From: Pseudomonadota bacterium
Lineage (GTDB): Bacteria; Pseudomonadota; Alphaproteobacteria; MPNO01; UBA2964
Assembly (NCBI GenBank): GCA_036339375.1
Contig: JAYZBC010000051.1
Coordinates: 11,796-75,795, forward strand
Reading direction: 5' to 3'
DNA: 64,000 nt
Positions 5,638 to 64,000 of the stretch are shown piece after piece (the stretch's first letter is position 1; each line of letters starts with the position of its first letter). Made by a program: the position numbers and the translations under genes. The notes under the pieces were generated by a model that ran no database searches, was not told the DNA's origin, and worked only from the letters and a program-made list of their open reading frames with translations.

Positions 5638-6396
5638 ATGGGACCATTAAATGAAAAAGTTGCTTTCATTACTGCAGCGGGAGGTGGAATTGCGAGCGCA
5701 ATTGCACGAAGATTTGCCGCGGAAGGTTGCACGGTAATTTGCGTGGATATTGAACAAAAGACCGTAAGTAAAACAGTTGCTGATATTGTGGAGGTTGGAG
5801 GCAAAGCTGTTGCAAAAATTTGCAACGTAGCAATTCAAGAGGAAGTAAAAAAAACGTTAGATGGTGCGGCTTCAGAATTTGGTAGGTTGGATATTGTAGT
5901 CAATGCAGCTGCCACTTCCGAGCCCCTCCATACTGTAGAAAATATGCCGCTTGATGTCTGGAAAAATGTTTTAGACGTCAATCTGACCGGGATGTTTTTG
6001 GTGGCTAAACATGCAATCCCTCATATGAAAATTACGGGAGGGGGACGATTTATTAATATTTCTTCGACCTTCGGGCATATCGCCTGGCCACAACGCCCTG
6101 CTTATATGGCCACCAAGGGCGCCGTTCGACAGTTAACGAAATCTATAGCTCTTGATTTTGCGAGTGATAATATACGCGCCAATAGTATCCTTCCTGGTGC
6201 TATTGAAACCAATAGGCTTTTGGAAAGAACACCAACAATGGAGCAAGTAAGAGAGAGAATGGTCCCCAAACACCCCATTGGCCGTTTGGGGCAACCAGAA
6301 GATATTGCCAATGCCGCGTTTTTTTTGGCAAGCGAACAATCAAGCTTTATGACCGGCTCCGATTTATTTGTGGATGGTGGATTTACAATGGTTTAA
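5638..6396 (+). CDS. Short-chain dehydrogenase/reductase (SDR), paralog 1 of 3
   Basis: YxxxK (PAYMATK), NIRANSILPG and DGG C-terminus; atypical TAAGGGIA Rossmann motif. Confidence 0.9.
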   Translation: MGPLNEKVAFITAAGGGIASAIARRFAAEGCTVICVDIEQKTVSKTVADIVEVGGKAVAKICNVAIQEEVKKTLDGAASEFGRLDIVVNAAATSEPLHTVENMPLDVWKNVLDVNLTGMFLVAKHAIPHMKITGGGRFINISSTFGHIAWPQRPAYMATKGAVRQLTKSIALDFASDNIRANSILPGAIETNRLLERTPTMEQVRERMVPKHPIGRLGQPEDIANAAFFLASEQSSFMTGSDLFVDGGFTMV

Positions 6397-6417
6397 AAAA
6401 CAAGATTTGGAGAAAAA

Positions 6418-7176
6418 ATGGGACAACTCGATGGAAAAGTAGCCTTTATTACAGCCGCTGGAGGAGCTATCGCCGGAGCTACCGCTAGGTTATTTTCAAA
6501 AGAAGGAGCCGCCGTGTGTTGCATAGACATTTTAGAAAGAAATGTCAAAGAAACTGCTAACGATATCAATGAAGGTGGAGGAAATTCGATAGCGCTTGTC
6601 TGTGATGTCACTGATGACAAAGCTGTTGCAGACGCAGTAGAGAAAACCGTTAAAGAGTTTGGAAAACTTGATGTGTGTTTTAATGCTGCAGCCTATTCGG
6701 AAAAGAGACACAGGTTAGCCGAAATGCCTCTCGAAATGTGGAAAAATGTTATCGACGTTAATTTAACGGGCATGTTCATAGTAGCACGCAACGTGATACC
6801 AAAAATGCAATCAACTGGTGGAGGATCAATTATCAACGTGTCTTCCATTTACGGACTCGTGGGTGCCAAAGAACGTCCCGCGTATTGCGCTGCAAAAGGG
6901 GGAGTCCGGATGCTCTCTAAGTCGATTGCCGTCGATTACGCTGCCGATAACATCCGTGCAAATTCCATCATGCCTGGGCCGATAGAAACGCCAAGACTTC
7001 TCGCACGAAATCCTTCCATTGAAGCAGTAATTGAACGGCACGGCCCTCGCCTTCACCAAAAAAGACTCGGTAAACCAGAAGAGATTGCTCAAACCGCCTT
7101 ATTTCTTGCTAGCGATGAGTCAAGCTTTACATCCGGTGCAGATATGGTTGTTGATGCCGCATATACGGCATTCTGA
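6418..7176 (+). CDS. SDR, paralog 2 of 3
   Basis: PAYCAAK and NIRANSIMPG; TAAGGAIA motif. Confidence 0.9.
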   Translation: MGQLDGKVAFITAAGGAIAGATARLFSKEGAAVCCIDILERNVKETANDINEGGGNSIALVCDVTDDKAVADAVEKTVKEFGKLDVCFNAAAYSEKRHRLAEMPLEMWKNVIDVNLTGMFIVARNVIPKMQSTGGGSIINVSSIYGLVGAKERPAYCAAKGGVRMLSKSIAVDYAADNIRANSIMPGPIETPRLLARNPSIEAVIERHGPRLHQKRLGKPEEIAQTALFLASDESSFTSGADMVVDAAYTAF

Positions 7177-7189
7177 TAGGGAGAATTAA

Positions 7190-7948
7190 ATGGGCCGATT
7201 AAATAAAAAGGTTGCGTTTGTAACGGCATCTGGTGGTGCAATTGCGGGAGCAACTGCGCGTTTGTTTGGATTAGAGGGTGCCGCTGTTGCTTGCGTGGAC
7301 ATAGCAGAGGAAAATGTAAAAAAAACTGCCGAAGATATTGAAAACAATGGTGGAAAGGCCATTTCCATTAAATGTGACGTTACGAATGAAGAAGCAGTCC
7401 AGAATGCCTTAAAAAAAACTGTCTCTGTCTTTGGAAAATTGGATGTGGTGTTTAATGCCGCAGCTTATCCCGACCCGCTACTACCTGCCCATGAATTAGA
7501 TGTTGAGGTTTGGCGCAAAACTTTTGATGTCAATGTCACAGGAATGTTTATTGTGACCAAATATGCTATCCCGTTTATGAAAGCTGCGGGTGGTGGTTCG
7601 TTTATCAATGTTTCATCAATTTATGGTGCACGTTCGGCTCGAAAACGCCCCGCTTATTGTTCTTCTAAAGGCGCTGTCCGTATGCTTTCGAAGTCAGTAG
7701 CAGTAGACTACGCGTTAGATAATATTCGCGCTAATTCTATCTTACCGGGTCCGATAGAAACCCCGCGCCTTTTAATTGCCAATTCTAATATGCAAGATGT
7801 CATTGAACGTCATCGACCGCATCTCCCTGCAGCACGCCTCGGACAACCTGAAGAAATAGCGAAAACGGCACTATTTTTAGCAAGCGATGCCTCAAGTTTT
7901 ATGTCAGGGAACGATTGTTTTGTAGATGGAGCTTATAACGCCATTTAA
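7190..7948 (+). CDS. SDR, paralog 3 of 3
   Basis: PAYCSSK and NIRANSILPG; TASGGAIA motif. Confidence 0.9.
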   Translation: MGRLNKKVAFVTASGGAIAGATARLFGLEGAAVACVDIAEENVKKTAEDIENNGGKAISIKCDVTNEEAVQNALKKTVSVFGKLDVVFNAAAYPDPLLPAHELDVEVWRKTFDVNVTGMFIVTKYAIPFMKAAGGGSFINVSSIYGARSARKRPAYCSSKGAVRMLSKSVAVDYALDNIRANSILPGPIETPRLLIANSNMQDVIERHRPHLPAARLGQPEEIAKTALFLASDASSFMSGNDCFVDGAYNAI

Positions 7949-42038: not shown

Positions 42039-43193
42039 ATGGAAATATCAAAGTCTCAAAGGACAAAATCCAACAAAAAAACGGCTCGCCTGGACAAACT
42101 TTATACAACTCTCAATTCATTAAAAATGGCGCCCTACTGGGCGGTGAAAGATTCACCAAATGACCACAACGAGGATGACCAGGTTTTAAAAGGCCGCAAA
42201 GCTTTGCCGTTTATTTGGAAATATTCAGAGATAGAACCATTGCTTTTTGAAGCCGCGGAATTAATTTCAATGGACGATTCAGAGCGTCGTTCGATCGTCC
42301 TAGTAAATCCTGGGATGGCGCCAATCCGCGCTACTGTATCTACCCTTTACACGGCTTATCGTTTGAATGACCCAAATGAAATTATGCCGCCGCATCGGCA
42401 TTCGATCAATGCAGTTCGAATAGGCCTCACCGGAAAACAAAATTTTACTGGTGTTGAAGGCGAACCTATCACATTTGGTCCAGGTGACCTTGTCTTAACA
42501 CCAGCCGATGCTTGGCACAATCATGGTAATAAAGGCGACGATTTCGCTGTAAATGTCAGTGTATTAGATCTCCCCCTTTCTGAAGTTTTAAATGCTGCAA
42601 AATTTGAACATGACTATAAAGAGAAAAATGGAGGACAATTAATCTCAAAACGTGAGCAGTCTATTCGCTTTTCAGACAATTATTCACAGAGGACCTACGG
42701 GTATGGGGGATTAAAACCCCGTTTTTTAAATCATGATCGAGGAACGGGCTTGCATTCGCCAATGTATGTCTATCGATGGGAGAAAACACGCGAAATGCTT
42801 GAGGACCTCCGAAATCATGAGGGTAGCCCTTGGGATGCCATTCAAGTTGAATACACAAACCCAATTACTGGCCTCACCGCTTATCCTACTATGACATTTT
42901 TTGGCCAACTGCTAAGACCAGGAGAAAGCACGCTCCCTCAACAGCAAAATGCGAGTCAAATTTGTTTCCCTTTTGATGGTAAAGGGTACAGTATGGTTGG
43001 GCAAACACGCTTGGAATGGGAACCTTTTGATGCAGTCGCAATCCCGGGTGGCGTTTGGTATCAACATTTTAACTCTTCCGAAAATCAAGATGCCATTTTA
43101 TTTGTCGCAAGTGATGAGCCAACACTAAAAGCTCTCGGATTTTTCAAAAGACAGGGGAAAAATGCGAATGGTGAAACACTGTTTCTAGAGTAA
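42039..43193 (+). CDS. Gentisate / 1-hydroxy-2-naphthoate 1,2-dioxygenase-like bicupin
   Basis: SERRSIVLVNP, PPHRHS, WHNH, YTNPITG and SDEP. Confidence 0.85.
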   Translation: MEISKSQRTKSNKKTARLDKLYTTLNSLKMAPYWAVKDSPNDHNEDDQVLKGRKALPFIWKYSEIEPLLFEAAELISMDDSERRSIVLVNPGMAPIRATVSTLYTAYRLNDPNEIMPPHRHSINAVRIGLTGKQNFTGVEGEPITFGPGDLVLTPADAWHNHGNKGDDFAVNVSVLDLPLSEVLNAAKFEHDYKEKNGGQLISKREQSIRFSDNYSQRTYGYGGLKPRFLNHDRGTGLHSPMYVYRWEKTREMLEDLRNHEGSPWDAIQVEYTNPITGLTAYPTMTFFGQLLRPGESTLPQQQNASQICFPFDGKGYSMVGQTRLEWEPFDAVAIPGGVWYQHFNSSENQDAILFVASDEPTLKALGFFKRQGKNANGETLFLE

Positions 43194-43200
43194 TAAAAAT

Positions 43201-45315
43201 ATGAAATTCAAAATTGGGGTGGATGTCGGAGGAACTTTTATTGATCTCGTGGTTTCCGATGATCAACTTGGTAAACGTTTCCACAAAACCCTAGCTGATC
43301 CCAAGGATCTTTCTGGTTCCCTTTTTGCTGGACTGGAATTCATAGCCAAGGACATGGGTTTAACGCTGGCCGGTCTCCTTAAAAACACTTTAATGATTAT
43401 ACATGGGAGTACAGTAGCTACCAACGCGTTGTTAACGCGAACAGGTGCTACCACCGCATTGTTAACGACAGAAGGTTTTCGTGACGTCCTTAACATGCGG
43501 AGAGGCATGCGTTCAAATCAATATAACCCTAAACAAGCGCCTCCTACACCGCTTATTCCGAGGCAATTAATTCTTCCAATTCCCGAACGCATCGATTGCG
43601 AAGGAAATGTGGTCAAACCAATAAACAAAAAAAGATGCGACGAAATTCTCACAAAACTTAGGGATGAAGGTGTAGAAAGTGTTGCTATAGGTTTCTTGTT
43701 TTCGTTTATGAACAAAAAACATGAAGATTATTTAGCATCTAGGCTTAAAGAGTTTATGCCTGATGTGCATGTTTCAACTTCGAACGAAGTCCTTCCAGAA
43801 GTACGACTTTACGAAAGACTGAGTACAACGGCTGTTAATGCCTATGTTACCCCCATCTTAAGTCGGTATTTACATGCACTCAAACTGCGTCTTAAGAATT
43901 CCGGCTTTAAAGGCGACCTACTGATTATGCAGTCAAATGGTGGCGTCATGGGATTTGAAGCAAGTTCTAAATACGGAGTTCGAAGCATTTTATCCGGGCC
44001 GGCAAGTGGACCCATTGCCGGAGCATGGTATGCAAATCTCCAAGGATTATCTAACGCTATTACTATGGATATGGGCGGTACAAGTTTTGATGTTTGCCTT
44101 ATAAATGATGGAAAAACAGAGGTTACCAAGGACTTAGAAATTGATGGCCAAAGAATTGCTTTACCATTGGTGGCGGTTCACACAATCGGTGCAGGAGGCG
44201 GTAGCATCGTAAAAATGGATTCTCGCGGCCTTCTTCAGGTCGGGCCGGAAAGTGCCGGCTCCACCCCCGGCCCTGTTTGTTACGGGCGCGGTGGAATACA
44301 TCCGACAGTCACCGACGCGGATGTCCTTATCGGCTACTTGGGTACAAAAAGTTTCTGGGGCGGCCGGCTCCACCTCGACAAAGCAGCAGCCTATAAAGCA
44401 TTTCAAAAACAAATCGCTCTGCCCATGGATCTAGAGGTAGTCGCCGCCGCCTACGGTGCATACCAGGTCGTCAATGCAGCGATGGTCGATGCAATCAGAG
44501 AGGTATCTATTAGGCGCGGATTTGATCCACGAAAATTTGTGTTAGTCGCAGCAGGAGGAGCCGGACCAATTCACGCATGTGATATTGCAAAGGAGCTTGA
44601 TGTACCCCTAATTTTAATACCGCGCGAGGCTTCAGTAATGTGTGCCACTGGTCAGCTATTGTCTGATTTACGACACGATTACGTAAGGAGCTACGTAATG
44701 CCACTAGAAAAAATTGATTGCGCAATTGTCAAAACTCATTTCTCCGGTATGGAAAAACAAGCCGTAGAAGCACTAAATTTGGAAGGTATTCAAAAGGAAA
44801 AAATACTCATTTCTTATTCGGCCGATGTTAGATATGTAGGGCAATTCAACGATGTAGAGGTGCCAGTAAAATCAACTCAATTTTCGGAACCCACAATTGT
44901 TAAGCTCATCAGAGATTTTCATAAACTTCACGAATCTTTAAACGGCTACCATGTCCTCGATGCGTCTGTTGAGTTAGTCAATCTGCGTTTGGTAGCGAAG
45001 GGACAGACTCAAAAGCCCAAAATCAATAACAAAACGGGTCAAATTCCTGTTAAACAACCGAGACCTATACTTCACCGGAAAGCTTATTTTTCTAATGGTT
45101 TCACTGATGTACCAGTTTTTAATGGATCCGATTTTTTTTCAGGCATAAACGTCCCAGGCCCTGCCATTGTGGAACAAGAAACTACTACAATTCTAGTTCA
45201 ACCTGGCTATGAGTTACATTGTGATCTTTATGGCAATTTTCTTTTGCATAGAGAAGGCCTTAACAAAGAAAAGATAGTAAATTCTTTAAAATCGTCTCGG
45301 TTGCAACAGGATTAG
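43201..45315 (+). CDS. Hydantoinase A / oxoprolinase family, ATP-binding subunit
   Basis: GVDVGGTFID, HGSTVATNA, MQSNGG, SGPASG, DMGGTSFD, IGAGGGS and PTVTDA. Confidence 0.93.
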   Translation: MKFKIGVDVGGTFIDLVVSDDQLGKRFHKTLADPKDLSGSLFAGLEFIAKDMGLTLAGLLKNTLMIIHGSTVATNALLTRTGATTALLTTEGFRDVLNMRRGMRSNQYNPKQAPPTPLIPRQLILPIPERIDCEGNVVKPINKKRCDEILTKLRDEGVESVAIGFLFSFMNKKHEDYLASRLKEFMPDVHVSTSNEVLPEVRLYERLSTTAVNAYVTPILSRYLHALKLRLKNSGFKGDLLIMQSNGGVMGFEASSKYGVRSILSGPASGPIAGAWYANLQGLSNAITMDMGGTSFDVCLINDGKTEVTKDLEIDGQRIALPLVAVHTIGAGGGSIVKMDSRGLLQVGPESAGSTPGPVCYGRGGIHPTVTDADVLIGYLGTKSFWGGRLHLDKAAAYKAFQKQIALPMDLEVVAAAYGAYQVVNAAMVDAIREVSIRRGFDPRKFVLVAAGGAGPIHACDIAKELDVPLILIPREASVMCATGQLLSDLRHDYVRSYVMPLEKIDCAIVKTHFSGMEKQAVEALNLEGIQKEKILISYSADVRYVGQFNDVEVPVKSTQFSEPTIVKLIRDFHKLHESLNGYHVLDASVELVNLRLVAKGQTQKPKINNKTGQIPVKQPRPILHRKAYFSNGFTDVPVFNGSDFFSGINVPGPAIVEQETTTILVQPGYELHCDLYGNFLLHREGLNKEKIVNSLKSSRLQQD

Positions 45316-45319
45316 TGCG

Positions 45320-47056
45320 ATGGACCAAATTTTAATGACAGTAATTACTAACCGACTTGAAGGTATCACCCGGGAAATGGGGACAGGAATGTTACGCAGT
45401 TCGCGTTCCCCAATTTTTGCTGAAAACAAAGATCTGGTAACGGCCATATTCGACAAACAACTCCGTCTAGTAGCACAAACCGCCTACATTCCTGTGCTAA
45501 TGGGAGCCAGCCCGTTCGCAATAAAATCTATAGCAGAACATTTTGGTGAAGACATTAATCAAGGCGATATTATGATTCTAAACGACCCTTATCGCGGAAA
45601 TAATCATGCACCCGACATAACTGTCGTGAAGCCAGTATTTTTTGCAGAAGAGTTGCATTTTTGGGTTTTTAGCAGGGGACATCACGCTGATATTGGCGGT
45701 GGGGGTACGGCAGGAAGAAACCCTCATGCCAAAACAGTCTGGGAAGAGGGTTTACGAATACCACCTACTAAACTTTATCAAAAAGGCGAATATAACCGAG
45801 ATATATGGGAAATAATTCTTCTCAATGTTCGTTTACCGTCTTTGGTTGAAGGTGACCTACAGTGTCAAGTTGGCGCATGCAATGTGGGGGAGAAAGGGTT
45901 GGGAAAACTATTACAACAATACGGGTTACAAAATGTTGGGGATACGATCAATGAGGTGTTGAAAAGAAGTGAAATTCAAATGCAGGAGCGGATAGCCACC
46001 ATTCCAGATGGAATTTATTTTGGCGAAAGGCAATTAGACCATTTACTTGATACAGACCCGCCAAAGCGGCCGACAGTAAGGGTCAAGCTTAAAAAAAAGG
46101 ATCGAAAGTTGTTTTTTGATTTTGCTCAATCAGATCCACAAATTCAGGCCTATTACAATAGCTCTTATGCAAATACCGTGTCTTCTTGCTATATTGGCCT
46201 CTTTTCTACAATCGCGTCAGATATCAACGTCGATAATGGATCCATGCAACCCGTAGAGGTTGTTGCTCCAAAAGGTTCTTTGGTTAATCCCATTGAAGGT
46301 GCGCCAACGACCCAGTGTACCGTTGCCACCTGTGCTACAATCGTTGAGACCGTTTGGCTAGCCCTCGCCACAGCAGTACCAAAACTTGTGCAAGCAGGAT
46401 GGGCAAGAACAAATGCAGGTGCAGGAACGGCCTTTAATCCAAGAACCGGAAGGCAAGCGGCTTTCATCCTCCACTTCACCAAAGGTGGCGGTGGCGCTAC
46501 TTTGGGTTATGATGGTTGGAACCACATTTCTCCTGTGTCTTCCATGGGTGGTTCCCGCGTCCCTGACCCGGAGCTCCACGAATTGACATTTCCACACCGT
46601 ATTCTCAAATATGAGTTTCGACCTGAGAGTGCGGGTATAGGTCAATGGCGGGGTGGATATGGGGTAAACTTCTCTCTCCGCTTTATTGAAGATGGAACGG
46701 CACTAGCCATACAAATAGGGAGTGGAAGCCATGAAACTTTGCCGTTTGGATTAGAGGGAGGCGGTAACGCTGTTGCGGGTACAATAGGAACACGCCCTAC
46801 AGATGGCGAACCAAAAATGTTCGAGGAGGCTACATTACACTTCCCACGCTGTGGCGATATAGTGGACTTTGGATCTGCTGGTGGAGGTGGATTTGGCGAT
46901 CCCTATAAACGCTCAGAGGAAGAAGTGTTAACTGATGTAACTTCGGGCCTATTGTCAATTGAAAACGCAGTTAAACAATACGGGGTTGTTGTACACCCAA
47001 GTACTCTAACTGTTGATTATCAAGCTACAGAAAATAAACGGAAAAAATTTAAATAA
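45320..47056 (+). CDS. Hydantoinase B / oxoprolinase family subunit
   Basis: SSRSP, NDPYRGNNHAPD, GHHADIGG, EEGLRIPP, GQWRGG and GGGGFGDP. Confidence 0.93.
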   Translation: MDQILMTVITNRLEGITREMGTGMLRSSRSPIFAENKDLVTAIFDKQLRLVAQTAYIPVLMGASPFAIKSIAEHFGEDINQGDIMILNDPYRGNNHAPDITVVKPVFFAEELHFWVFSRGHHADIGGGGTAGRNPHAKTVWEEGLRIPPTKLYQKGEYNRDIWEIILLNVRLPSLVEGDLQCQVGACNVGEKGLGKLLQQYGLQNVGDTINEVLKRSEIQMQERIATIPDGIYFGERQLDHLLDTDPPKRPTVRVKLKKKDRKLFFDFAQSDPQIQAYYNSSYANTVSSCYIGLFSTIASDINVDNGSMQPVEVVAPKGSLVNPIEGAPTTQCTVATCATIVETVWLALATAVPKLVQAGWARTNAGAGTAFNPRTGRQAAFILHFTKGGGGATLGYDGWNHISPVSSMGGSRVPDPELHELTFPHRILKYEFRPESAGIGQWRGGYGVNFSLRFIEDGTALAIQIGSGSHETLPFGLEGGGNAVAGTIGTRPTDGEPKMFEEATLHFPRCGDIVDFGSAGGGGFGDPYKRSEEEVLTDVTSGLLSIENAVKQYGVVVHPSTLTVDYQATENKRKKFK

Positions 47057-52366: not shown

Positions 52367-53335
52367 TCAGTCACCTTCAATTCTGTAATATCGAGCAAAT
52401 TTCATGATTGGTTCATCGGTCATTCGAAAAACTACTGAATCTTCACTACTGCAATGTTCTATCCATTTCCAAACTGGAGCAGCGATAGTGTCACCCCGCT
52501 CCCATTCAAATTTTTCTCCTTCAATCGTAGTAATTCCTGCCCCTTGCATGATAACGAAAACATTATTGGTTGCTGAACGGTAACGACGGGTAGTTAAGCC
52601 GGAATCCCAACGGTGCACATAAAGACCCATCGTCGGCATACTTGGCGCATCCAACAAGATACTAGGCCCATAAAATTCTTCAATATCCGATTCGGCTTCC
52701 TCGAGTTCTTTTAAAGTGTCATCCCAGCTAAAACGATATGGAGACGTCTCCGTTACCACTTCCACTTCTTCAAAACCTTCTGGATGATCCTCGAAAAACA
52801 TCGGCTCTAATAAATGGTTCAAGGGAACATCAAGCCCATCAAACCAGTAAGCCGGCTCCTCACCATCGTGGCCATGTCCATGCCAACACCATCCTGGTGT
52901 AAGCAAAATATCCCCGGTTTCCATAGGGGTTTTTTCGCCATCTACTGTCGAATATGAGCCTTTACCATCAATTATTACACGTAAAGCGTGTGGGGCGTGT
53001 CGATGTGACCTTGCTTTTTCACCTGGTAAAATCATTTGATAGGCACTAACCAGCGTGCGTGTCGTAGCAATATCATTGGGCTCCACGGGATTTCTCATAA
53101 TCAGATTTCTTCTTTCAGCCAGCTCAGTGTTAATAAGTCTTCCCGCAATATCGAGGGCCTCCTTGCTTTGGCGGTAACGCCAATGCATGGGTCTAAAGTC
53201 AGTTGTGGGTTGAGAACGGAGAATTGGCGTATCGCGATCAATCCACCCAGCGGTCATGTCAACTTTACCAAGTTCATAGTATAGATCATCAAGCGTACCA
53301 ATATTAGGTTTAATCCCTTCCATTTTACTATTCAT
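52367..53335 (-). CDS. Gentisate/salicylate 1,2-dioxygenase-like bicupin (paralog of 34572)
   Basis: AERRNL, YQMILPGEKARSHRH, WHGH and TDEP. Confidence 0.88.
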   Translation of the reverse strand: MNSKMEGIKPNIGTLDDLYYELGKVDMTAGWIDRDTPILRSQPTTDFRPMHWRYRQSKEALDIAGRLINTELAERRNLIMRNPVEPNDIATTRTLVSAYQMILPGEKARSHRHAPHALRVIIDGKGSYSTVDGEKTPMETGDILLTPGWCWHGHGHDGEEPAYWFDGLDVPLNHLLEPMFFEDHPEGFEEVEVVTETSPYRFSWDDTLKELEEAESDIEEFYGPSILLDAPSMPTMGLYVHRWDSGLTTRRYRSATNNVFVIMQGAGITTIEGEKFEWERGDTIAAPVWKWIEHCSSEDSVVFRMTDEPIMKFARYYRIEGD

Positions 53336-55855: not shown

Positions 55856-57589
55856 TTGAAAATATTCTATCCCTTAGTCTTCTTGGGTTTTTTGTGTTTA
55901 GAAAACAACCTGGTAGCGCAAAGTCATCAACCAGAATTTTCCTCCCGTATAACCCAAAAAAGTGCAGTTTTTTCCAAACATTTAATGATTGCCGTAGCCA
56001 ATCCTATTGCTGCGAATGTCGGTTATAAAATTCTTCGTCAAGGGGGTACTGCGATTGATGCGGCTATTGCCGCACAAATGGTTCTTGGACTAGTTGAGGG
56101 CCAAAGCTCTGGTATAGGAGGCGACGCAGCACTGCTTTATTGGAATGGTATTAAAAAAGAATTATTTGCAATTGATGGAAGAGTAAAAGCGCCTTCAAAT
56201 GTCAACGAAGAAATGTTTTATGACAATTTTGGCAAGAAAATGGGTAGAGACGAAGCTGGGTTTGGTGGTTTAGCTGTCGGTACTCCCACCCTACTCCGTG
56301 TACTGGAAAGAGCACATCAAAAATTCGGTTTCTTGCCTTGGAAAAGCCTTTTTGAACCTGCAATAAAATTGGCAATTAACGGGTTTTTCATCTCCCCTCG
56401 TCTTCACAAACAAATAAAAAAAAATAAACGAATCCGTAAAAATCATGCGGCATTAAAATATTTTTTTGATGGTGATGGGTATCCCCGGCCAGTAGGGTAC
56501 AAATTGGTCAACCTACCTTATGCCGAAACCCTTAAACGCGTTGGAAGAATGGGGACAAAAGGTTTTTACTCAGGCAACCTACCTAACAAAATTGCCAGGG
56601 CGGTTAAAAATTCATTAAAAAATCCTGGCTATCTTAATGCCGCTGATATTCGAAAATACCAACCAGAAACCGTCGATCCCATATGCTCTTTTTACAGGGG
56701 TTTCAAAGTGTGTGGCATGCCGCCCCCTAGTACTGGGGGGCTCACCATTGCCATGACACTAAAAATGTTGGAACGATTTGATCTCAAATCATTAGGTTTC
56801 AAAAAAGCGCAAGCGCACCACCTTTATATTGAAGCATATCGGCTGGCTCATGAAGACCGTACACGTTATATTGGCGATCCGAGGTTTTATAACATTCCAG
56901 TTTCTGGACTCCTAAACGCGGAATATTTGCGAAAACGGAGTCAATTGATAAAACCCTTTAAAAAGTCTCCCGTATACTCCGGTCATCCGCCAAATTTTGC
57001 TGACCGGAATTTAACCGGGGACAATTCTATGGAACCCCCTTCGACTACGCACCTGTCGATAGTCGACAAATATGGAAACGCTATATCTTTGACATCTTCT
57101 CTAGGGCGTGGTTTTGGAACAGGTGTTATGGTTGACGGTTTTTTGCTTAACAGCCAACTGCTTGGGTTTGGTTTTAACCCTATGAGCCAGGACAGGCCAA
57201 ATATTAACAGACCCGAAGCTAAAAAAAGACCACGGACTTCAAAATCCCCTACAATGGTTTTTAACGCGGATAGATCTTTGAAACTGATAATAGGCTCACC
57301 AGGGGGAGGACGGATAATCAATTACGTGGCACGTACAATCATTGCTGTTATCGATTGGAAATTGAATATACAAGATGCTATTTCTCTCCCCCATGTGGTT
57401 CCAAGAAGGGGAAGAGTTGAACTTGAAAGAGGAACAGCAGCAATACGTTTAAAAAATGAATTAGACAAAAGGGGCCACTGGGTAAAAACTCGTTCGCTCA
57501 CCAGTGGGCTGCATGGTATCCAAATAATTCCAAATGGTCTTATCGGTGGCGCAGACACTCGTCGTGAAGGGATTGCTTTAGGCGATTAA
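55856..57589 (+). CDS. Gamma-glutamyltransferase-family (Ntn) hydrolase, exported, with an atypical acyl-binding pocket
   Basis: Signal peptide, GGTAIDAAIA, STTHLSIVD (Thr nucleophile), GSPGG and GGAD.RREG. Confidence 0.9.
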   Translation: MKIFYPLVFLGFLCLENNLVAQSHQPEFSSRITQKSAVFSKHLMIAVANPIAANVGYKILRQGGTAIDAAIAAQMVLGLVEGQSSGIGGDAALLYWNGIKKELFAIDGRVKAPSNVNEEMFYDNFGKKMGRDEAGFGGLAVGTPTLLRVLERAHQKFGFLPWKSLFEPAIKLAINGFFISPRLHKQIKKNKRIRKNHAALKYFFDGDGYPRPVGYKLVNLPYAETLKRVGRMGTKGFYSGNLPNKIARAVKNSLKNPGYLNAADIRKYQPETVDPICSFYRGFKVCGMPPPSTGGLTIAMTLKMLERFDLKSLGFKKAQAHHLYIEAYRLAHEDRTRYIGDPRFYNIPVSGLLNAEYLRKRSQLIKPFKKSPVYSGHPPNFADRNLTGDNSMEPPSTTHLSIVDKYGNAISLTSSLGRGFGTGVMVDGFLLNSQLLGFGFNPMSQDRPNINRPEAKKRPRTSKSPTMVFNADRSLKLIIGSPGGGRIINYVARTIIAVIDWKLNIQDAISLPHVVPRRGRVELERGTAAIRLKNELDKRGHWVKTRSLTSGLHGIQIIPNGLIGGADTRREGIALGD

Positions 57590-58665: not shown

Positions 58666-61600
58666 CTATTTTGCAATACTTGCTGAGAGTTGACGTGAGA
58701 CTAAGTGAGCATACAAGCCACCTCCTGACACAAGGCTAGAGTGGTCTCCAGTCTCCATTACCCTTCCCTCATCCAAAACAATAATTTGATCAGCATCACT
58801 GATCGTTGAAAGGCGGTGGGCAATTACAAGTGTGGTTCGTTCGAGACGCAGTTTGTCTAAGGCCTCTCGAACCAAACTTTCACTAATTGAATCCAGATGG
58901 GAAGTCGCCTCGTCAAGAATTAAGATAGGAGCATTTTTAAGAAATGCACGGGCAATGGCGACCCGTTGCCTCTGCCCGCCTGACAACTGCATTCCTCGTT
59001 CACCAACCGGCGTATCAAGTCCCTCCGGAAGTTCAGAAACAAAGTCCGCGAGCACTGCTTGCTCAACTGCCCTTTGAACATCTGATTCACTTGCCAAGGG
59101 TTCAGCAATTAAAATATTAGCTCTTAACGTATTGTTAAAAAGAAAGGTGTCCTGTGCAACTAAGGCTATTTTTTTGCGTAATTCAGCTAACTCATAATTG
59201 CGAATATCATGGCCGTTCATCGTTACAATCCCACAATTAGGGTCCCAAAAACGCATCATAAGATGCGCAATTGTTGTTTTTCCAGAACCCGAAGGGCCGA
59301 CTAGTGCAACGGTACTACCCTGGGCAACATTAAAACTAACTTTGTTAAGGGCATTACGGTTGACACCAAAATACGCAAAATCAACTTCAGACATTGCAAG
59401 TGCAGGGGTTTGTTTGGAAGGCTTAGAACTTACTCCGAGGCCGTCTGAGACCGATACAGTTTCGTCGTGGACAGCATAAAGGCGCCGAGTTGAGCCCAAG
59501 GTATCTGCCAACTGACGTCCAATATTGGCTATTTCGGATACTGGAAGAAAAGCAGACATCGCCAATAAAGTAAGTAATGGCAAAATTCCACTATCAAGAT
59601 TACCACTCATAACCAAAGATGTCCCGGTTATAACAATGACTAATCCACCCAACCCGGTAGCTACTTCAAGCAATGCCATTTGTATAGTTAGGTCTCTGAA
59701 GAAGGGCAAACGGAGTCGGTGGTGCTCTCGTACCTTAGATAAAAATTCCTTGCCCCTCAAAAACCCTTGTTGAAGTGCTGAAACTTCTGCTAGGCCTTGA
59801 ATCGTATCAACGGCATGAGCGTTAAGTTCACCTAACGCCTCACGGGCCTGTGATCCTAAAATATCAATACGCTTACGCATCAAGAACGGGCTGATAACCA
59901 CTACAGCAAGAAATGGTATTAACGACAAAGCCATATGCCAGTGAAATACACAAAGGGTTGTCAGCACCGCCGCAGGTACTACAAAAGACACGAAGGCTGG
60001 AGCTACTGTATGAGCGAAAAAATACTCTACAGTTTCAACATCGTGGGTAGCCATACCGACCAAATCGCCCGTGCGCCGGCGTACTAAGTAGGCGGGAGCT
60101 AACTGGTCCAACTTTTTAAACAAAGCCACCCTCATCTCCGCCAACAATTTGTATGCCATATCATGGGCAATCCATGATTCTATCCAGTGTAATAGACCAG
60201 CTAATGGCGCAACAATTGCAAGCCCAATTAGTGCATGCTCGAAAGGCGCCCCCGCCTTAACCGCCGCAACGGTAAGGCCGCTAAAAACACCAATACCAAT
60301 TAACGAGAATACCCTCATAACACCGAAAATAAATGTGAGAAATAATTGAACGCGCCTTGGAGAAACTAAGCGCAAAAGTTCAATAGTTGCCCTCCGCCAC
60401 CCCATTCCTTCTGCTCGAACGATAGCGTCAGTGGGCGAATTTTGTGCAATGTCATTTAACTCATTAGCTCGGTCCTCAACCGGAATTACACCACCCGGTT
60501 CTTTTAAATTCAAAAAAGAGCCAACTTCAAACTCCTTGACTTGTCGAGACATTAATCGATGGTAGGCACCACCGAGTTCCATTAATTCTTGATGAGTCCC
60601 AGTTTCAACTATGCGCCCGTCTTCCAATGCTAAAAGCCTGTCAGCGCCTATCACACTCGACAAACGATGCGCAAAAATTAGTGTAGTTCTTCCCACCATT
60701 AAACGGTCAAGTGCACCCTGGATTACAGCCTCATTTTCTGCATCAACAGAAGAAAGGGCTTCATCTAATACAAGAATTGGCGCATTGCGCAAAACAGCTC
60801 GCGCTATCGCAATACGTTGGCGTTGCCCTCCTGACAACCTAACGCCACGTTCTCCCACAACAGTTTTATACCCGTGAGGTAACAAGGTTATAAAATCGTG
60901 CGCATTTGCAACCTCTGCTGCCTCTTTTAACTCTTTTTGGGTAGCCTTTGGTTTACCCATCCGGAGATTGTCCTCGACAGTACCATGAAAAAGGTAGGTA
61001 TCCTGGTTTACGACTGCCAAACGACTCCGGATCTGTTCGAAATTGAGATTGCGCAAATCGTGCCCACCAATTTTGATACTGCCTTTCTGTGGGTCATAAT
61101 TGCGAAGGAGAAGACGGACGATAGAGGATTTTCCCGCCCCGCTGGGAGCTACAATACCAACACGCTCCCCCGCTTCCACTCTAAAACTCAACTCTCTGTG
61201 TGCAGGATTACGCCCTCCCGGATAAGCAAAGTTTACATTGTCAAATTCAATAGTTGCCGGAACTTCGTCTTGACCTAATGAAGTTGATTCAGGGTCACCG
61301 ATAGCCGGTAGGGAATCAAGAATTGAAAACACCCCCTGGGCGGCCGATTGTCCAACCATCCCTTGGTGTAAAAGTGTCCTAAGTTCCCGCAGTGGACGGA
61401 ATACTTCAATACCCATCATCAAAATTACAAGTAAAGCTTCTAAGCTCATCATTCCTGAAGAAACTCGGTAAGCCCCGATCCCCAAAGTAGCTGCAGCCCC
61501 AACCGCTATACCGGTATCGGCAATTCCACGCGCCATTGTGTTTGTTGCTAATACCCACATTGTACTGCTGAACAAAGCCTTTGCCTTTTTCTCTAACAAG

Positions 61601-62256
61601 CGTGCACGGGCACCGCTTTGACCAAAAGCCTTAAGTGTCCCAAGGCCTTGCACGGCATCAAGAAACTCAGCACTAAAATCTCCAAAATGGTGTTTTCGAG
61701 AACGGCTTGCACGACTATTCCATCGGTGAAAGGCCATCGGCAAAAAGAGGGTAACCAATGCAAAACCCAACAGAATTAATGCAATCGGCAAATCCAAAAA
61801 TGCTACAAATAAGAAAATTCCAATTGGCATGAGAAATGCCACCAAAATTTGGGGCAAATAACGACCAAAATATGTTTCTAATTGTTCAACGCCATCAATA
61901 ATTGACAAAATGACTTCGCCTGTCCTCTGGCGACCAAAATGAGCGGGACCTAATTCCATTACCTTTTCATAAAGGATTTTTCTTAAATTAACCTGGACCA
62001 GTGCTGCTGTCCGGTGGGCAGCCATATTACGTGCATATTCGAGAAAACCCCGAACCAACATAACTCCAGCTACAACCCCAAAAGGAACGATTAGTTCTTG
62101 TAGTGGTTCGGAACGAAATACCTTAGCGAGCAACCAACCCAGCAACGCCAGTCGGCCAATACCAAAAATTGCAGCTAACAAGCCAACAGCCGTCGAGCCC
62201 GCTATGCGAAGCCTTACGCCTTTAGTGAACTGCCATAATCGGGGGTCAAAATACAT
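58666..62256 (-). CDS. Fused double ABC transporter (TMD-NBD-TMD-NBD), CydD-CydC-like
   Basis: Two Walker A motifs (APSGAGKS, GPSGSGKT), two LSGGQRQR signatures, and ILVLDEA / ILILDEA. Confidence 0.92.
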   Translation of the reverse strand: MYFDPRLWQFTKGVRLRIAGSTAVGLLAAIFGIGRLALLGWLLAKVFRSEPLQELIVPFGVVAGVMLVRGFLEYARNMAAHRTAALVQVNLRKILYEKVMELGPAHFGRQRTGEVILSIIDGVEQLETYFGRYLPQILVAFLMPIGIFLFVAFLDLPIALILLGFALVTLFLPMAFHRWNSRASRSRKHHFGDFSAEFLDAVQGLGTLKAFGQSGARARLLEKKAKALFSSTMWVLATNTMARGIADTGIAVGAAATLGIGAYRVSSGMMSLEALLVILMMGIEVFRPLRELRTLLHQGMVGQSAAQGVFSILDSLPAIGDPESTSLGQDEVPATIEFDNVNFAYPGGRNPAHRELSFRVEAGERVGIVAPSGAGKSSIVRLLLRNYDPQKGSIKIGGHDLRNLNFEQIRSRLAVVNQDTYLFHGTVEDNLRMGKPKATQKELKEAAEVANAHDFITLLPHGYKTVVGERGVRLSGGQRQRIAIARAVLRNAPILVLDEALSSVDAENEAVIQGALDRLMVGRTTLIFAHRLSSVIGADRLLALEDGRIVETGTHQELMELGGAYHRLMSRQVKEFEVGSFLNLKEPGGVIPVEDRANELNDIAQNSPTDAIVRAEGMGWRRATIELLRLVSPRRVQLFLTFIFGVMRVFSLIGIGVFSGLTVAAVKAGAPFEHALIGLAIVAPLAGLLHWIESWIAHDMAYKLLAEMRVALFKKLDQLAPAYLVRRRTGDLVGMATHDVETVEYFFAHTVAPAFVSFVVPAAVLTTLCVFHWHMALSLIPFLAVVVISPFLMRKRIDILGSQAREALGELNAHAVDTIQGLAEVSALQQGFLRGKEFLSKVREHHRLRLPFFRDLTIQMALLEVATGLGGLVIVITGTSLVMSGNLDSGILPLLTLLAMSAFLPVSEIANIGRQLADTLGSTRRLYAVHDETVSVSDGLGVSSKPSKQTPALAMSEVDFAYFGVNRNALNKVSFNVAQGSTVALVGPSGSGKTTIAHLMMRFWDPNCGIVTMNGHDIRNYELAELRKKIALVAQDTFLFNNTLRANILIAEPLASESDVQRAVEQAVLADFVSELPEGLDTPVGERGMQLSGGQRQRVAIARAFLKNAPILILDEATSHLDSISESLVREALDKLRLERTTLVIAHRLSTISDADQIIVLDEGRVMETGDHSSLVSGGGLYAHLVSRQLSASIAK

Positions 62257-62512: not shown

Positions 62513-64000
62513 TTACCGCCATTGATCAACTGAAAGTGTACAGTTCTCAGCGCGCCGAGCTTCTATAACCTTCCAAGCCCCTTGGGTTTTGCCTCCGGTT
62601 ACAACTATATTTATTTCATCCGTATTATACATTTTTAACATATCAGTGGGTTTCGCATTCAGGTAACTGGCATAAGGTTCAATACCAGCAACTGCGCGCG
62701 GACGAATAAGCGTTTGCACCCATTGTTCATTCCAATATTGATGTGCTGGCAAAACAGCATTGTCAGCACACCAGTCAATTAGTTTTTCTTTTGAATTAAA
62801 CCCTTTTTCAACAAAACCATTTGCGACAATTGGATCCATAACAAGCAATGGCGATTCTCTTGCTTCGCTGGCTGCAAATACCCGTTTTAATTTTGTCTGC
62901 CATTCTTCTCTTGGTCCAAATCCCGACTGCACATATCGTCCGCCACGAAAAACAGTGACTGAACTTTCATCCCTGCCAAAACCGAACCGGGTGTGAAGTG
63001 GTGCCCAAGGGCTATCCTCTTCGTTTTCTGAAATTGCAGGAGCGCAGGAGACAAAATTCCCAAGTGTTCCCATATAGGTATCGCCTGGAACGGAACCACC
63101 TTGCAGGTTTTGGGAAAGTAAATTCCAAGAACGTCCGATAGTTGAATTGGCACGATTAAAAGGCCCAAGGGCGCCGATACCACAATTCATTCCGATTTCA
63201 TTGCGAATTGGACCATTGACCACAGCAATCCCAGAAAACGATGTAGTGCTGCTAGAACGAGCGGTTTCGCCGCTCGCTGCCATAGCGAGAATAACTGGCA
63301 AATATTCCGGTTTAGCTCCTGCCATTACCGCATTAACAGCTACTTTTTCAACTGTAAATTCCCAAAACTCGCGAAACCCTGTTGGGCGCAGTTTTCCGAC
63401 GACTTCATCCGCTGAATGGCTTGTTCCTTTTAACATTGCCTGAACTCTATCTTCTGTAGGCAAATAGATAGGTAGAAAATCCGTCCAGTGTTTTTCCTCA
63501 AATAAATTTTTAAAATTTTCTTCTGTGTCAGGTTCCAAAAATTTAGGTGTATTACGCTCAAAAGAAATTCCTGAGAGATCGTTATCATTTAAAGGGTTGG
63601 TAAGACCCTCTAATATTTCTTGCATGAAAGGTCGACTACTAACCGGATCTTTTCCCTCTATGTATGCCCTCAAATCTGATGGGGAGCGATCCACAACTGG
63701 CTGAGGGACAAAGGCCTGTCGCATTGTTGGCATACCATTTGCCAAAGCAACTGATTTTGAAAGACGTGCAAATACATGGGTGTGTACTGCTATTGAGGGT
63801 ATTCCCGCTTCATCAAGAGCCATCCCTAGCCCGACGACCGTCGGGCTACAGGTGCTTCAAAGTCCAACACCTAGTATCGCTGCATCACCATCTTGAACAA
63901 TTTTTGAACGCATATCTGGATCATCAACCCAACTTTGCTGAGGTCTAATAATTTTCGTAATGACTTCTGGCATGTTCTCGGCGAACCACTCTTGAAGCTG
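62513..64000 (-). CDS. Selenoprotein with UxxC (U-S-T-C) motif: UGSC-like thioredoxin-fold domain fused to a large conserved domain; 5'-truncated by the window edge
   Basis: The frame is open from 64000 (QLQEWFAENMPE...GDAAILGVGL) through in-frame TGA 63857-63859 into STCSPTVVGLG-MALDEAG. That Met is the annotated start at 63823. A SECIS-like hairpin follows the TGA. Confidence 0.88.
63827..63848 (-). promoter_or_regulatory. Bacterial SECIS (selenocysteine insertion) hairpin
   Basis: Minus strand TAGCCCGAC-GGTC-GTCGGGCTA: perfect 9-bp stem with a GGUC loop; the first loop G is 18 nt after the UGA. Confidence 0.82.

Follow-up and report, generated by a model that had tools for sequence, protein, structure and literature searches.

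The 64,000-nucleotide stretch analysed here (the window), part of contig JAYZBC010000051.1 from the genome of a marine alphaproteobacterium, ends inside a minus-strand reading frame that is interrupted by a TGA codon and continues beyond it into an open reading frame (ORF) of 436 amino acids (aa). The question raised by this locus is whether the TGA ends one gene shortly before the start of another or is read as selenocysteine (Sec, U) within a single gene. We find that the split gene is a single 544-aa Sec protein of the UGSC family; this is a sound re-annotation and not a new kind of system. On the evidence of sequence comparison the UGA very probably encodes Sec. To the explanation as a whole, in which Sec would be read at the UGA by means of a downstream hairpin, reduced by a thioredoxin reductase-like (TrxR-like) flavoprotein and used by a C-terminal substrate domain, we assign a probability of about 0.9.

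The reading frame across the UGA codon

The minus-strand frame contains no stop codon from 64000 to 63860, a run of 47 codons (QLQEWF...DAAILGVGL), and then reaches the TGA, around which the codons read GGT GTT GGA CTT TGA AGC ACC TGT AGC CCG ACG GTC GTC GGG CTA GGG ATG. Past the TGA the frame runs on through STCSPTVVGLG and reaches, at 63823, an ATG whose Met lies 12 codons past the UGA and is the start of the 436-aa ORF (62513..63823, minus strand). Readthrough yields a product of 495 aa inside the window. Since the end of the window cuts the gene, its 5' end was recovered from a near-identical 4952-bp ENA scaffold (L001), which also encodes the product of the 436-aa ORF (P0001) and adds 49 N-terminal codons up to an ATG. 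The full frame (L001:2485-4119) gives a 544-aa product with Sec as residue 97 in the sequence G-V-G-L-U-S-T-C. The same sequence was found in four independent marine metagenomes, and the TGA codon did not vary in any of them. The features of the gene and of its surroundings are listed in Table 1.

Table 1. Positions of the selenoprotein gene, its elements and other genes in the 64-kb window
Feature	Position	Strand	Basis or remark
Selenoprotein gene, 3' 1488 nt, residues 50-544 and stop codon TAA (62515..62513)	62513..64000	-	Translation; homologues collinear over full length
Sec codon UGA, residue 97, first position of U-S-T-C	63857..63859	-	Codon census; Cys in continuous homologues
Hairpin of the selenocysteine insertion sequence (SECIS) type	63827..63848	-	Predicted fold, covariation, unique in window
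UGSC domain, window part residues 50-161 (domain about 7-161), U-x-x-C between beta strand and helix	63665..64000	-	Pfam PF24696; homologue model
C-terminal domain, about 355 residues (188-544), no family assignment	62516..63586	-	Alignments; 3869 matching cluster representatives
Fused two-half ATP-binding cassette (ABC) exporter, MsbA/CydDC-like, 1196 aa, downstream	58666..62256	-	Context; not in recurrent neighbour clusters
Gamma-glutamyltransferase	55856-57589	+	
Gentisate/5-aminosalicylate 1,2-dioxygenase-like cupin	42039-43193	+	Below equivalog cut-off
Gentisate/5-aminosalicylate 1,2-dioxygenase-like cupin	52367-53335	-	Below equivalog cut-off
Caprolactamase (hydantoinase A/B)-like pair	43201-47056	+	Below equivalog cut-offs
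Three tandem short-chain-dehydrogenase-like paralogues, 252 aa each, mutual identity 54-65%	5638-7948	+	

The codon at the homologous position was compared in 82 loci, consisting of L001, L002 and 80 loci fetched from GTDB species genomes (alpha- and gammaproteobacteria, Burkholderiales, Acidobacteriota, Chloroflexota, Binatia, Thermoleophilia, Planctomycetes and Eremiobacterota). TGA occupied 90 of the 94 homologous sites, which are spread over more than eight phyla; the remaining four were TGC or TGT, and every one of these belonged to a short Cys paralogue. Within the clade that carries the motif, Sec was present at all 86 sites of the long form, across phyla. The N-terminal 96 residues were 60-75% identical across the 82 loci, which shows the frame upstream of the UGA to be coding. 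Homologues with a sense codon at the site align Cys with the UGA, as G-V-G-H-C-S-N-C in short forms and as CSTC, CPGC or CGSC in continuous long forms. The literal U-G-S-C motif is not present; the motif here is U-S-T-C, and relatives carry the variants U-S-S-C and U-S-T-S, with C-G-S-C in distant long forms. A match to the Pfam family PF24696 (UGSC) spans the UGA and scores 58 bits with the part in the window and 79.2 bits with the full-length protein (gathering score 25).

The original prediction, made from the letters of the window, had proposed one selenoprotein gene of the UGSC family split at a Sec-UGA and encoding at least 495 aa. The frame, the position of the TGA and the 12-codon distance to the 436-aa ORF were correct in all coordinates and counts, the length is 495 aa in the window and 544 aa with L001, and the PF24696 scores confirm the family. 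The single gene is borne out by the continuity of the domain, by the census of TGA codons and by the covariation of the hairpin described below. It had also anticipated that homologues would carry Cys or UGA at this position and that the upstream codons would resemble the N-termini of family members; the homologues indeed have C-S-N-C, C-S-T-C or UGA there, and the upstream similarity is that given above. The sel genes, whose presence it had also made a condition, lie beside the gene in relatives.

The hairpin and the selenocysteine machinery

Downstream of the UGA the transcript is predicted to fold into the hairpin UAGCCCGAC-GGUC-GUCGGGCUA, whose stem begins 8 nt past the UGA. The predicted stem is perfect and has 8-9 bp below a GGUC tetraloop, the G and U of which are nt 22-23 when the U of the UGA is counted as 1. 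In an alignment of 87 distinct sequences the GGUC loop was invariant, and the pair that joins the third bases of the Pro and second Val codons was never unpaired (GC in 64 sequences, CG in 20, and AU, UA and GU in 1 each); the neighbouring stem pair was AU in 74 and GC in 6. The changes at the Pro and Val third positions are both compensatory and synonymous, and in one locus (L056) a Thr-to-Ala and a Val-to-Ala change compensate each other in the stem. The covariation score of the hairpin was 0.163 versus 0.092 in shuffled alignments; none of 500 shuffles reached it and it exceeded all slid controls, in an alignment of coding sequence in which part of the conservation reflects the protein. No other TGA on either strand of the window precedes a perfect stem of at least 6 bp with an xGUx tetraloop. 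A search of the window with Rfam at gathering thresholds gave no family matching the hairpin.

The machinery for Sec synthesis and insertion is encoded close to the gene in other genomes. In 17 of the 82 loci selD, selA or selB was found within 9.5 kb, and representatives of all three sequence clusters exceed the NCBIfam cut-offs; a tRNA-Sec was found in 11 of these 17 loci. The arrangements include UGSC-selD-TrxR-like-selA-selB operons, and among the carriers are two cultured organisms, Ramlibacter aurantiacus AW1 and Hyphococcus luteus SY-3-19.

The stretch from the UGA to the hairpin behaved unusually in the metagenomes. In all four, the assembly unitigs are interrupted precisely at either end of the 32 nt 63828-63859, and the k-mer depth over these nucleotides is raised 2- to 5-fold in three of the four; the stretch is probably common, at the nucleotide level, to other organisms in the same samples.

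The loci also differ in the number and kind of UGSC genes that they hold. Two long-form selenoprotein genes, in tandem or a few kb apart, are present in each of L025, L028, L029, L030, L035, L039 and L041 (Acidobacteriota) and in L011 and L026, and every copy has its own TGA and hairpin. One orthologue (L037:9962-10018) reads U-S-T-S, its partner Cys being replaced by Ser (TCC), and keeps both the TGA and the hairpin. Short-form Cys paralogues of about 200 aa (L031:8875-9402, L033:2642-3181, L034:14670-15239 and L051:4524-5063), mainly from Xanthobacteraceae, have C-S-N-C or C-S-T-C and no hairpin after the codon; they lie near the long Sec form, divergently adjacent to it in L031, L033 and L051 and about 3.6 kb downstream in L034. 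Several continuous long forms (P0255, P0259, P0260 and P0339) have Met aligned with Sec, for example as M-S-N-C.

Domains, probable reductase partner and the role of the selenocysteine

A structure model was made on the full-length Cys homologue P0248, which is 47% identical to the window protein, and reached a mean predicted local distance difference test score (pLDDT) of 93.8 and a predicted template modelling score (pTM) of 0.93. Its N-terminal domain consists of a repeated beta-alpha unit, in which C102 and C105 sit between a strand (94-100) and a helix (105-118). Comparison of the model with the PDB using Foldseek gave weak, generic alpha/beta matches (template modelling (TM) score up to 0.19) to the flavodoxin-like domain of a flavodiiron protein, lumazine synthase, periplasmic binding proteins and a glycoside hydrolase family 3 (GH3) sandwich domain, and no thioredoxin was among them. 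The model thus shows a UGSC domain that is flavodoxin/Rossmann-like. The original prediction had placed the U-x-x-C in a thioredoxin-fold arrangement; the succession of strand, U-x-x-C and helix is seen in the homologue model, and the thioredoxin-fold label is left unsupported by the repeated beta-alpha unit and the absence of a thioredoxin-like match.

The C-terminal domain is matched by 3869 cluster representatives at E<=0.001. Its conserved motifs are WTDxLPIxLPTE, GTS, TVEKVAVNAVMAG, VNGPIR, NxANxTIGR, ENEExSPW, VVxGG and, at the C-terminus, SxDxWR. The search with 20 family members gave no Pfam family for this domain even at E<=1, and neither Foldseek on the model nor a profile search of PDB sequences gave a PDB relative. 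Class I fumarate hydratase and cyanuric acid hydrolase were considered as fold relatives and rejected, the Foldseek matches of a model of the 436-aa fragment being non-significant (E 3e-3, TM 0.19). That AlphaFold2 (AF2) model is poor over residues 1-118 because only half a domain is present there. Other arrangements of the domain were also seen: P0358 (1226 aa) combines it with copper-amine-oxidase N-terminal-like repeats and a UGSC domain, and P0292, P0310, P0327, P0337 and P0340 (about 710-740 aa) apparently contain two copies of it.

To find genes that accompany the selenoprotein gene, all ORFs within about 8-9.5 kb of it were clustered over the 82 loci. Besides the sel genes there was one recurrent neighbour, a gene for a TrxR-like flavoprotein of about 312 aa, present in 56 of the 82 loci and always on the same strand as the selenoprotein gene (immediately upstream of it in about 33 loci, immediately downstream in about 11). 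The C-A-(S/T)-C-D redox motif is kept in all 49 full-length copies. In the window organism this gene (L001:1517-2447, with a C-A-S-C-D site) lies just past window position 64000 on the same strand, and 37 nt separate its end from the start of the selenoprotein gene. Public annotation cuts it into ORFs of 64 and 254 aa, for the sole reason that the scaffold contains a 10-N gap at about L001:1698-1707.

These observations are consistent with the following course of events. The hairpin, with its 9-bp stem, would recruit SelB with Sec-tRNA(Sec), and the UGA is very probably decoded as Sec97; this residue precedes Cys100 by three positions, where a beta strand of the UGSC domain ends and a helix begins. 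Up to this point the account is backed by sequence, conservation and covariation. Sec97 and Cys100 would probably cycle between the selenol/thiol and the selenenylsulfide. The TrxR-like flavoprotein is probably the reductant of this centre, and re-reduction would proceed from NAD(P)H over FAD and the CxxC to the Sec97-Cys100 selenenylsulfide, from which electrons would pass to a substrate handled by the C-terminal domain. Such a relay is the most economical account of the gene pair. More tentatively, and with considerable doubt, we propose that the long UGSC protein and the TrxR-like flavoprotein form a two-component selenoenzyme with a catalytic C-terminal fold absent from the PDB, and that this enzyme is the main reason why Sec machinery is kept in many aerobic Alphaproteobacteria, Acidobacteriota and others in which the gene lies inside a selD-selA-selB-selC cluster.

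Several points weigh against this account. No selA, selB, selC or selD lies within the 64-kb window; tblastn searches of the window with SelA, SelB, SelD and the TrxR-like protein gave no match, and ARAGORN run on it found nothing. The NCBIfam equivalog NF041046 is matched with 52 bits by the partial and 60 bits by the full-length protein and its cut-off of 125 is not reached, which makes the protein a divergent long-form branch of the UGSC family. The NAD(P)H-binding motif of the TrxR-like enzyme is atypical, and the electron path from this enzyme is read from gene adjacency alone. Finally, the site lacks any Cys in about 21 of 30 continuous representatives of the long form with at least 500 aa (7 of the 30 have CxxC), and the proteins without Cys still carry all the C-terminal motifs. 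The two-domain scaffold may therefore work without a redox centre, and the core activity of the C-terminal domain may be independent of it.

The continuous forms that lack Cys at the site and keep every C-terminal motif favour a different role for the Sec, in which the protein is a real selenoprotein whose U-x-x-C is not catalytic. The Sec/Cys pair would then be a redox switch or a protective site reset by the TrxR-like enzyme, and the C-terminal domain would have a non-redox activity of the hydrolase, lyase or binding type. It also accords with such a role that neither Cys nor His is conserved in the C-terminal domain, whose invariant residues are Thr, Asp, Glu, Arg, Asn, Pro and Gly. We nevertheless regard a purely regulatory Sec as unlikely, since the retention of Sec at every long-form site of the clade with the motif, across phyla and despite the cost of a Sec machinery that is often encoded next to the gene, is what a catalytic Sec would lead one to expect, and since a dedicated CxxC flavoprotein is co-encoded.

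Two separate genes are what the gene callers of ENA, NCBI and JGI have annotated: the UGA would be a true stop that ends a 96-aa protein, and a protein of 436 aa would begin at the ATG 12 codons on, the hairpin serving translational coupling or attenuation. Two genes are very improbable. The best 120 database homologues are nearly all 406-441 aa long, mostly exactly 436 aa, and begin soon after the same UGA, and matching N-terminal pieces of 96-130 aa are present as separate entries; this pattern of truncation counts among the evidence for Sec. Between the TGA and the ATG lie 11 codons whose in-frame protein sequence (STCSPTVVGL) is conserved, the Cys homologues run continuously across the site, and one Pfam domain bridges the junction. 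The Met start of the 436-aa ORF is not conserved, being Thr, Ala or Ser in many loci, from which it follows that the callers choose starts yielding 406-441 aa. Least credible of all is that the TGA arose by an error of sequencing or assembly or is the lesion of a pseudogene, or that UGA means Trp or Gly under a variant code, for which nothing speaks but the bare presence of the stop codon: the identity of the four metagenomes, the 90 TGA sites and the uniqueness of the hairpin in the window make the codon neither chance nor error, TGA is an ordinary stop that terminates 14 of the 50 long ORFs of the window, and homologues align Cys with it, never Trp or Gly.

Surroundings, meaning and comparison with known systems

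The window is a mixed catabolic region. Its genes downstream of the selenoprotein gene, on the same strand, further include a bile-acid/Na+ symporter-family transporter, a luciferase-like (LLM) monooxygenase and LutABC, and an Amidohydro_2 protein is encoded on the strand opposite to the selenoprotein gene. The fused ABC exporter scores above the cut-offs for CydD and CydC (thiol-reductant exporter) and for MsbA, and together with the gamma-glutamyltransferase it may mean that the surroundings of the selenoprotein gene have a thiol or glutathione theme, in this genome only. The original prediction had regarded the protein as embedded in aromatic catabolism, a remark that probably goes back to the two cupins and the caprolactamase-like pair. 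As a functional clue this setting was rejected, and the link is incidental, because none of these window genes, including the gentisate-dioxygenase-like and caprolactamase-like ones, recurs beside the selenoprotein gene in other loci; the neighbours conserved there are the TrxR-like and sel genes.

The re-annotation turns thousands of public fragments, mostly of 436 aa and with the 96-aa N-terminal pieces called apart, into one 544-aa selenoprotein. Proteomic, structural or expression work on these fragments would miss the active site. UGSC proteins have been among the most abundant predicted selenoproteins of ocean and freshwater metagenomes since 2005-2008, with no function assigned, and the TrxR-like operon partner, the placement in sel clusters, the two cultured carriers and a high-confidence model with a C-terminal domain lacking a solved relative provide a testable handle on that function. 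What goes beyond the literature consulted is the quantified synteny with the TrxR-like gene and the sel cluster, the SECIS supported by covariation, a UGSC domain that in the model is not thioredoxin-like, and a large C-terminal domain without a structural relative; knowledge of Sec decoding itself is unchanged.

The UGSC-containing protein was described from Hyphomonas neptunium and from metagenomes as a selenoprotein whose function is unknown (Zhang & Gladyshev, PMC1976440). In the 2008 Global Ocean Sampling (GOS) paper (PMC2398784) it appears among the most abundant families, with 255 Sec versus 21 Cys sequences, its fold is called 'likely' Trx-like, and a 'UGSC/Unknown_1' fusion is reported; the C-terminal domain described here is a likely candidate for this 'Unknown_1'. 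The family was still uncharacterised in reviews of 2022 and 2026, and it is also known with Sec-UAG in Geodermatophilaceae. The present protein shares with it (PF24696; NF041046) a homologous domain, Sec as the first residue of a U-x-x-C past a hydrophobic strand, a large excess of Sec over Cys forms, an aquatic or marine habitat and the lack of a known function. Unlike the typical member, it has U-S-T-C in place of U-G-S-C and a 544-aa two-domain form, which public records hold only as pieces of 406-441 aa (most of 436 aa), some named 'UGSC family (seleno)protein', as in GenBank MEE8444936.1 for the 436-aa fragment. The short Cys paralogues (about 195-208 aa, for example P0124 and P0128) have the same domain at 48-52% identity, their C-S-N-C or C-S-T-C aligning with U-S-T-C, and are encoded beside the long Sec form in Xanthobacteraceae loci, but they have Cys for Sec, no hairpin and no C-terminal domain.

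The hairpin resembles the E. coli fdhF-type SECIS in being a stem-loop directly 3' of the UGA within the coding sequence, with an apical G and U about 20 nt on; its loop G and U at nt 22-23 are close in position to G23 and U24 of the fdhF element. It differs in its perfect stem of 8-9 bp, its GGUC tetraloop and its lack of a bulged U.

The gene pair is like the low-Mr thioredoxin reductase/thioredoxin and AhpF/AhpC pairs: a co-encoded flavoprotein of about 310 aa with C-A-(S/T)-C-D here accompanies a (U/C)-x-x-C at the N-terminus of a helix, an analogy that suggests a two-component relay dedicated to a disulfide or selenenylsulfide. Unlike in those pairs, the acceptor domain is not of the thioredoxin fold in the model, and unlike TrxB the TrxR-like reductase remains below the equivalog cut-off for thioredoxin-disulfide reductase (TIGR01292; 267 versus 343 bits). 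With the UGSC family and its fusion already described in 2007-2008, the gene at the end of this window is a mis-annotated member of a known family.

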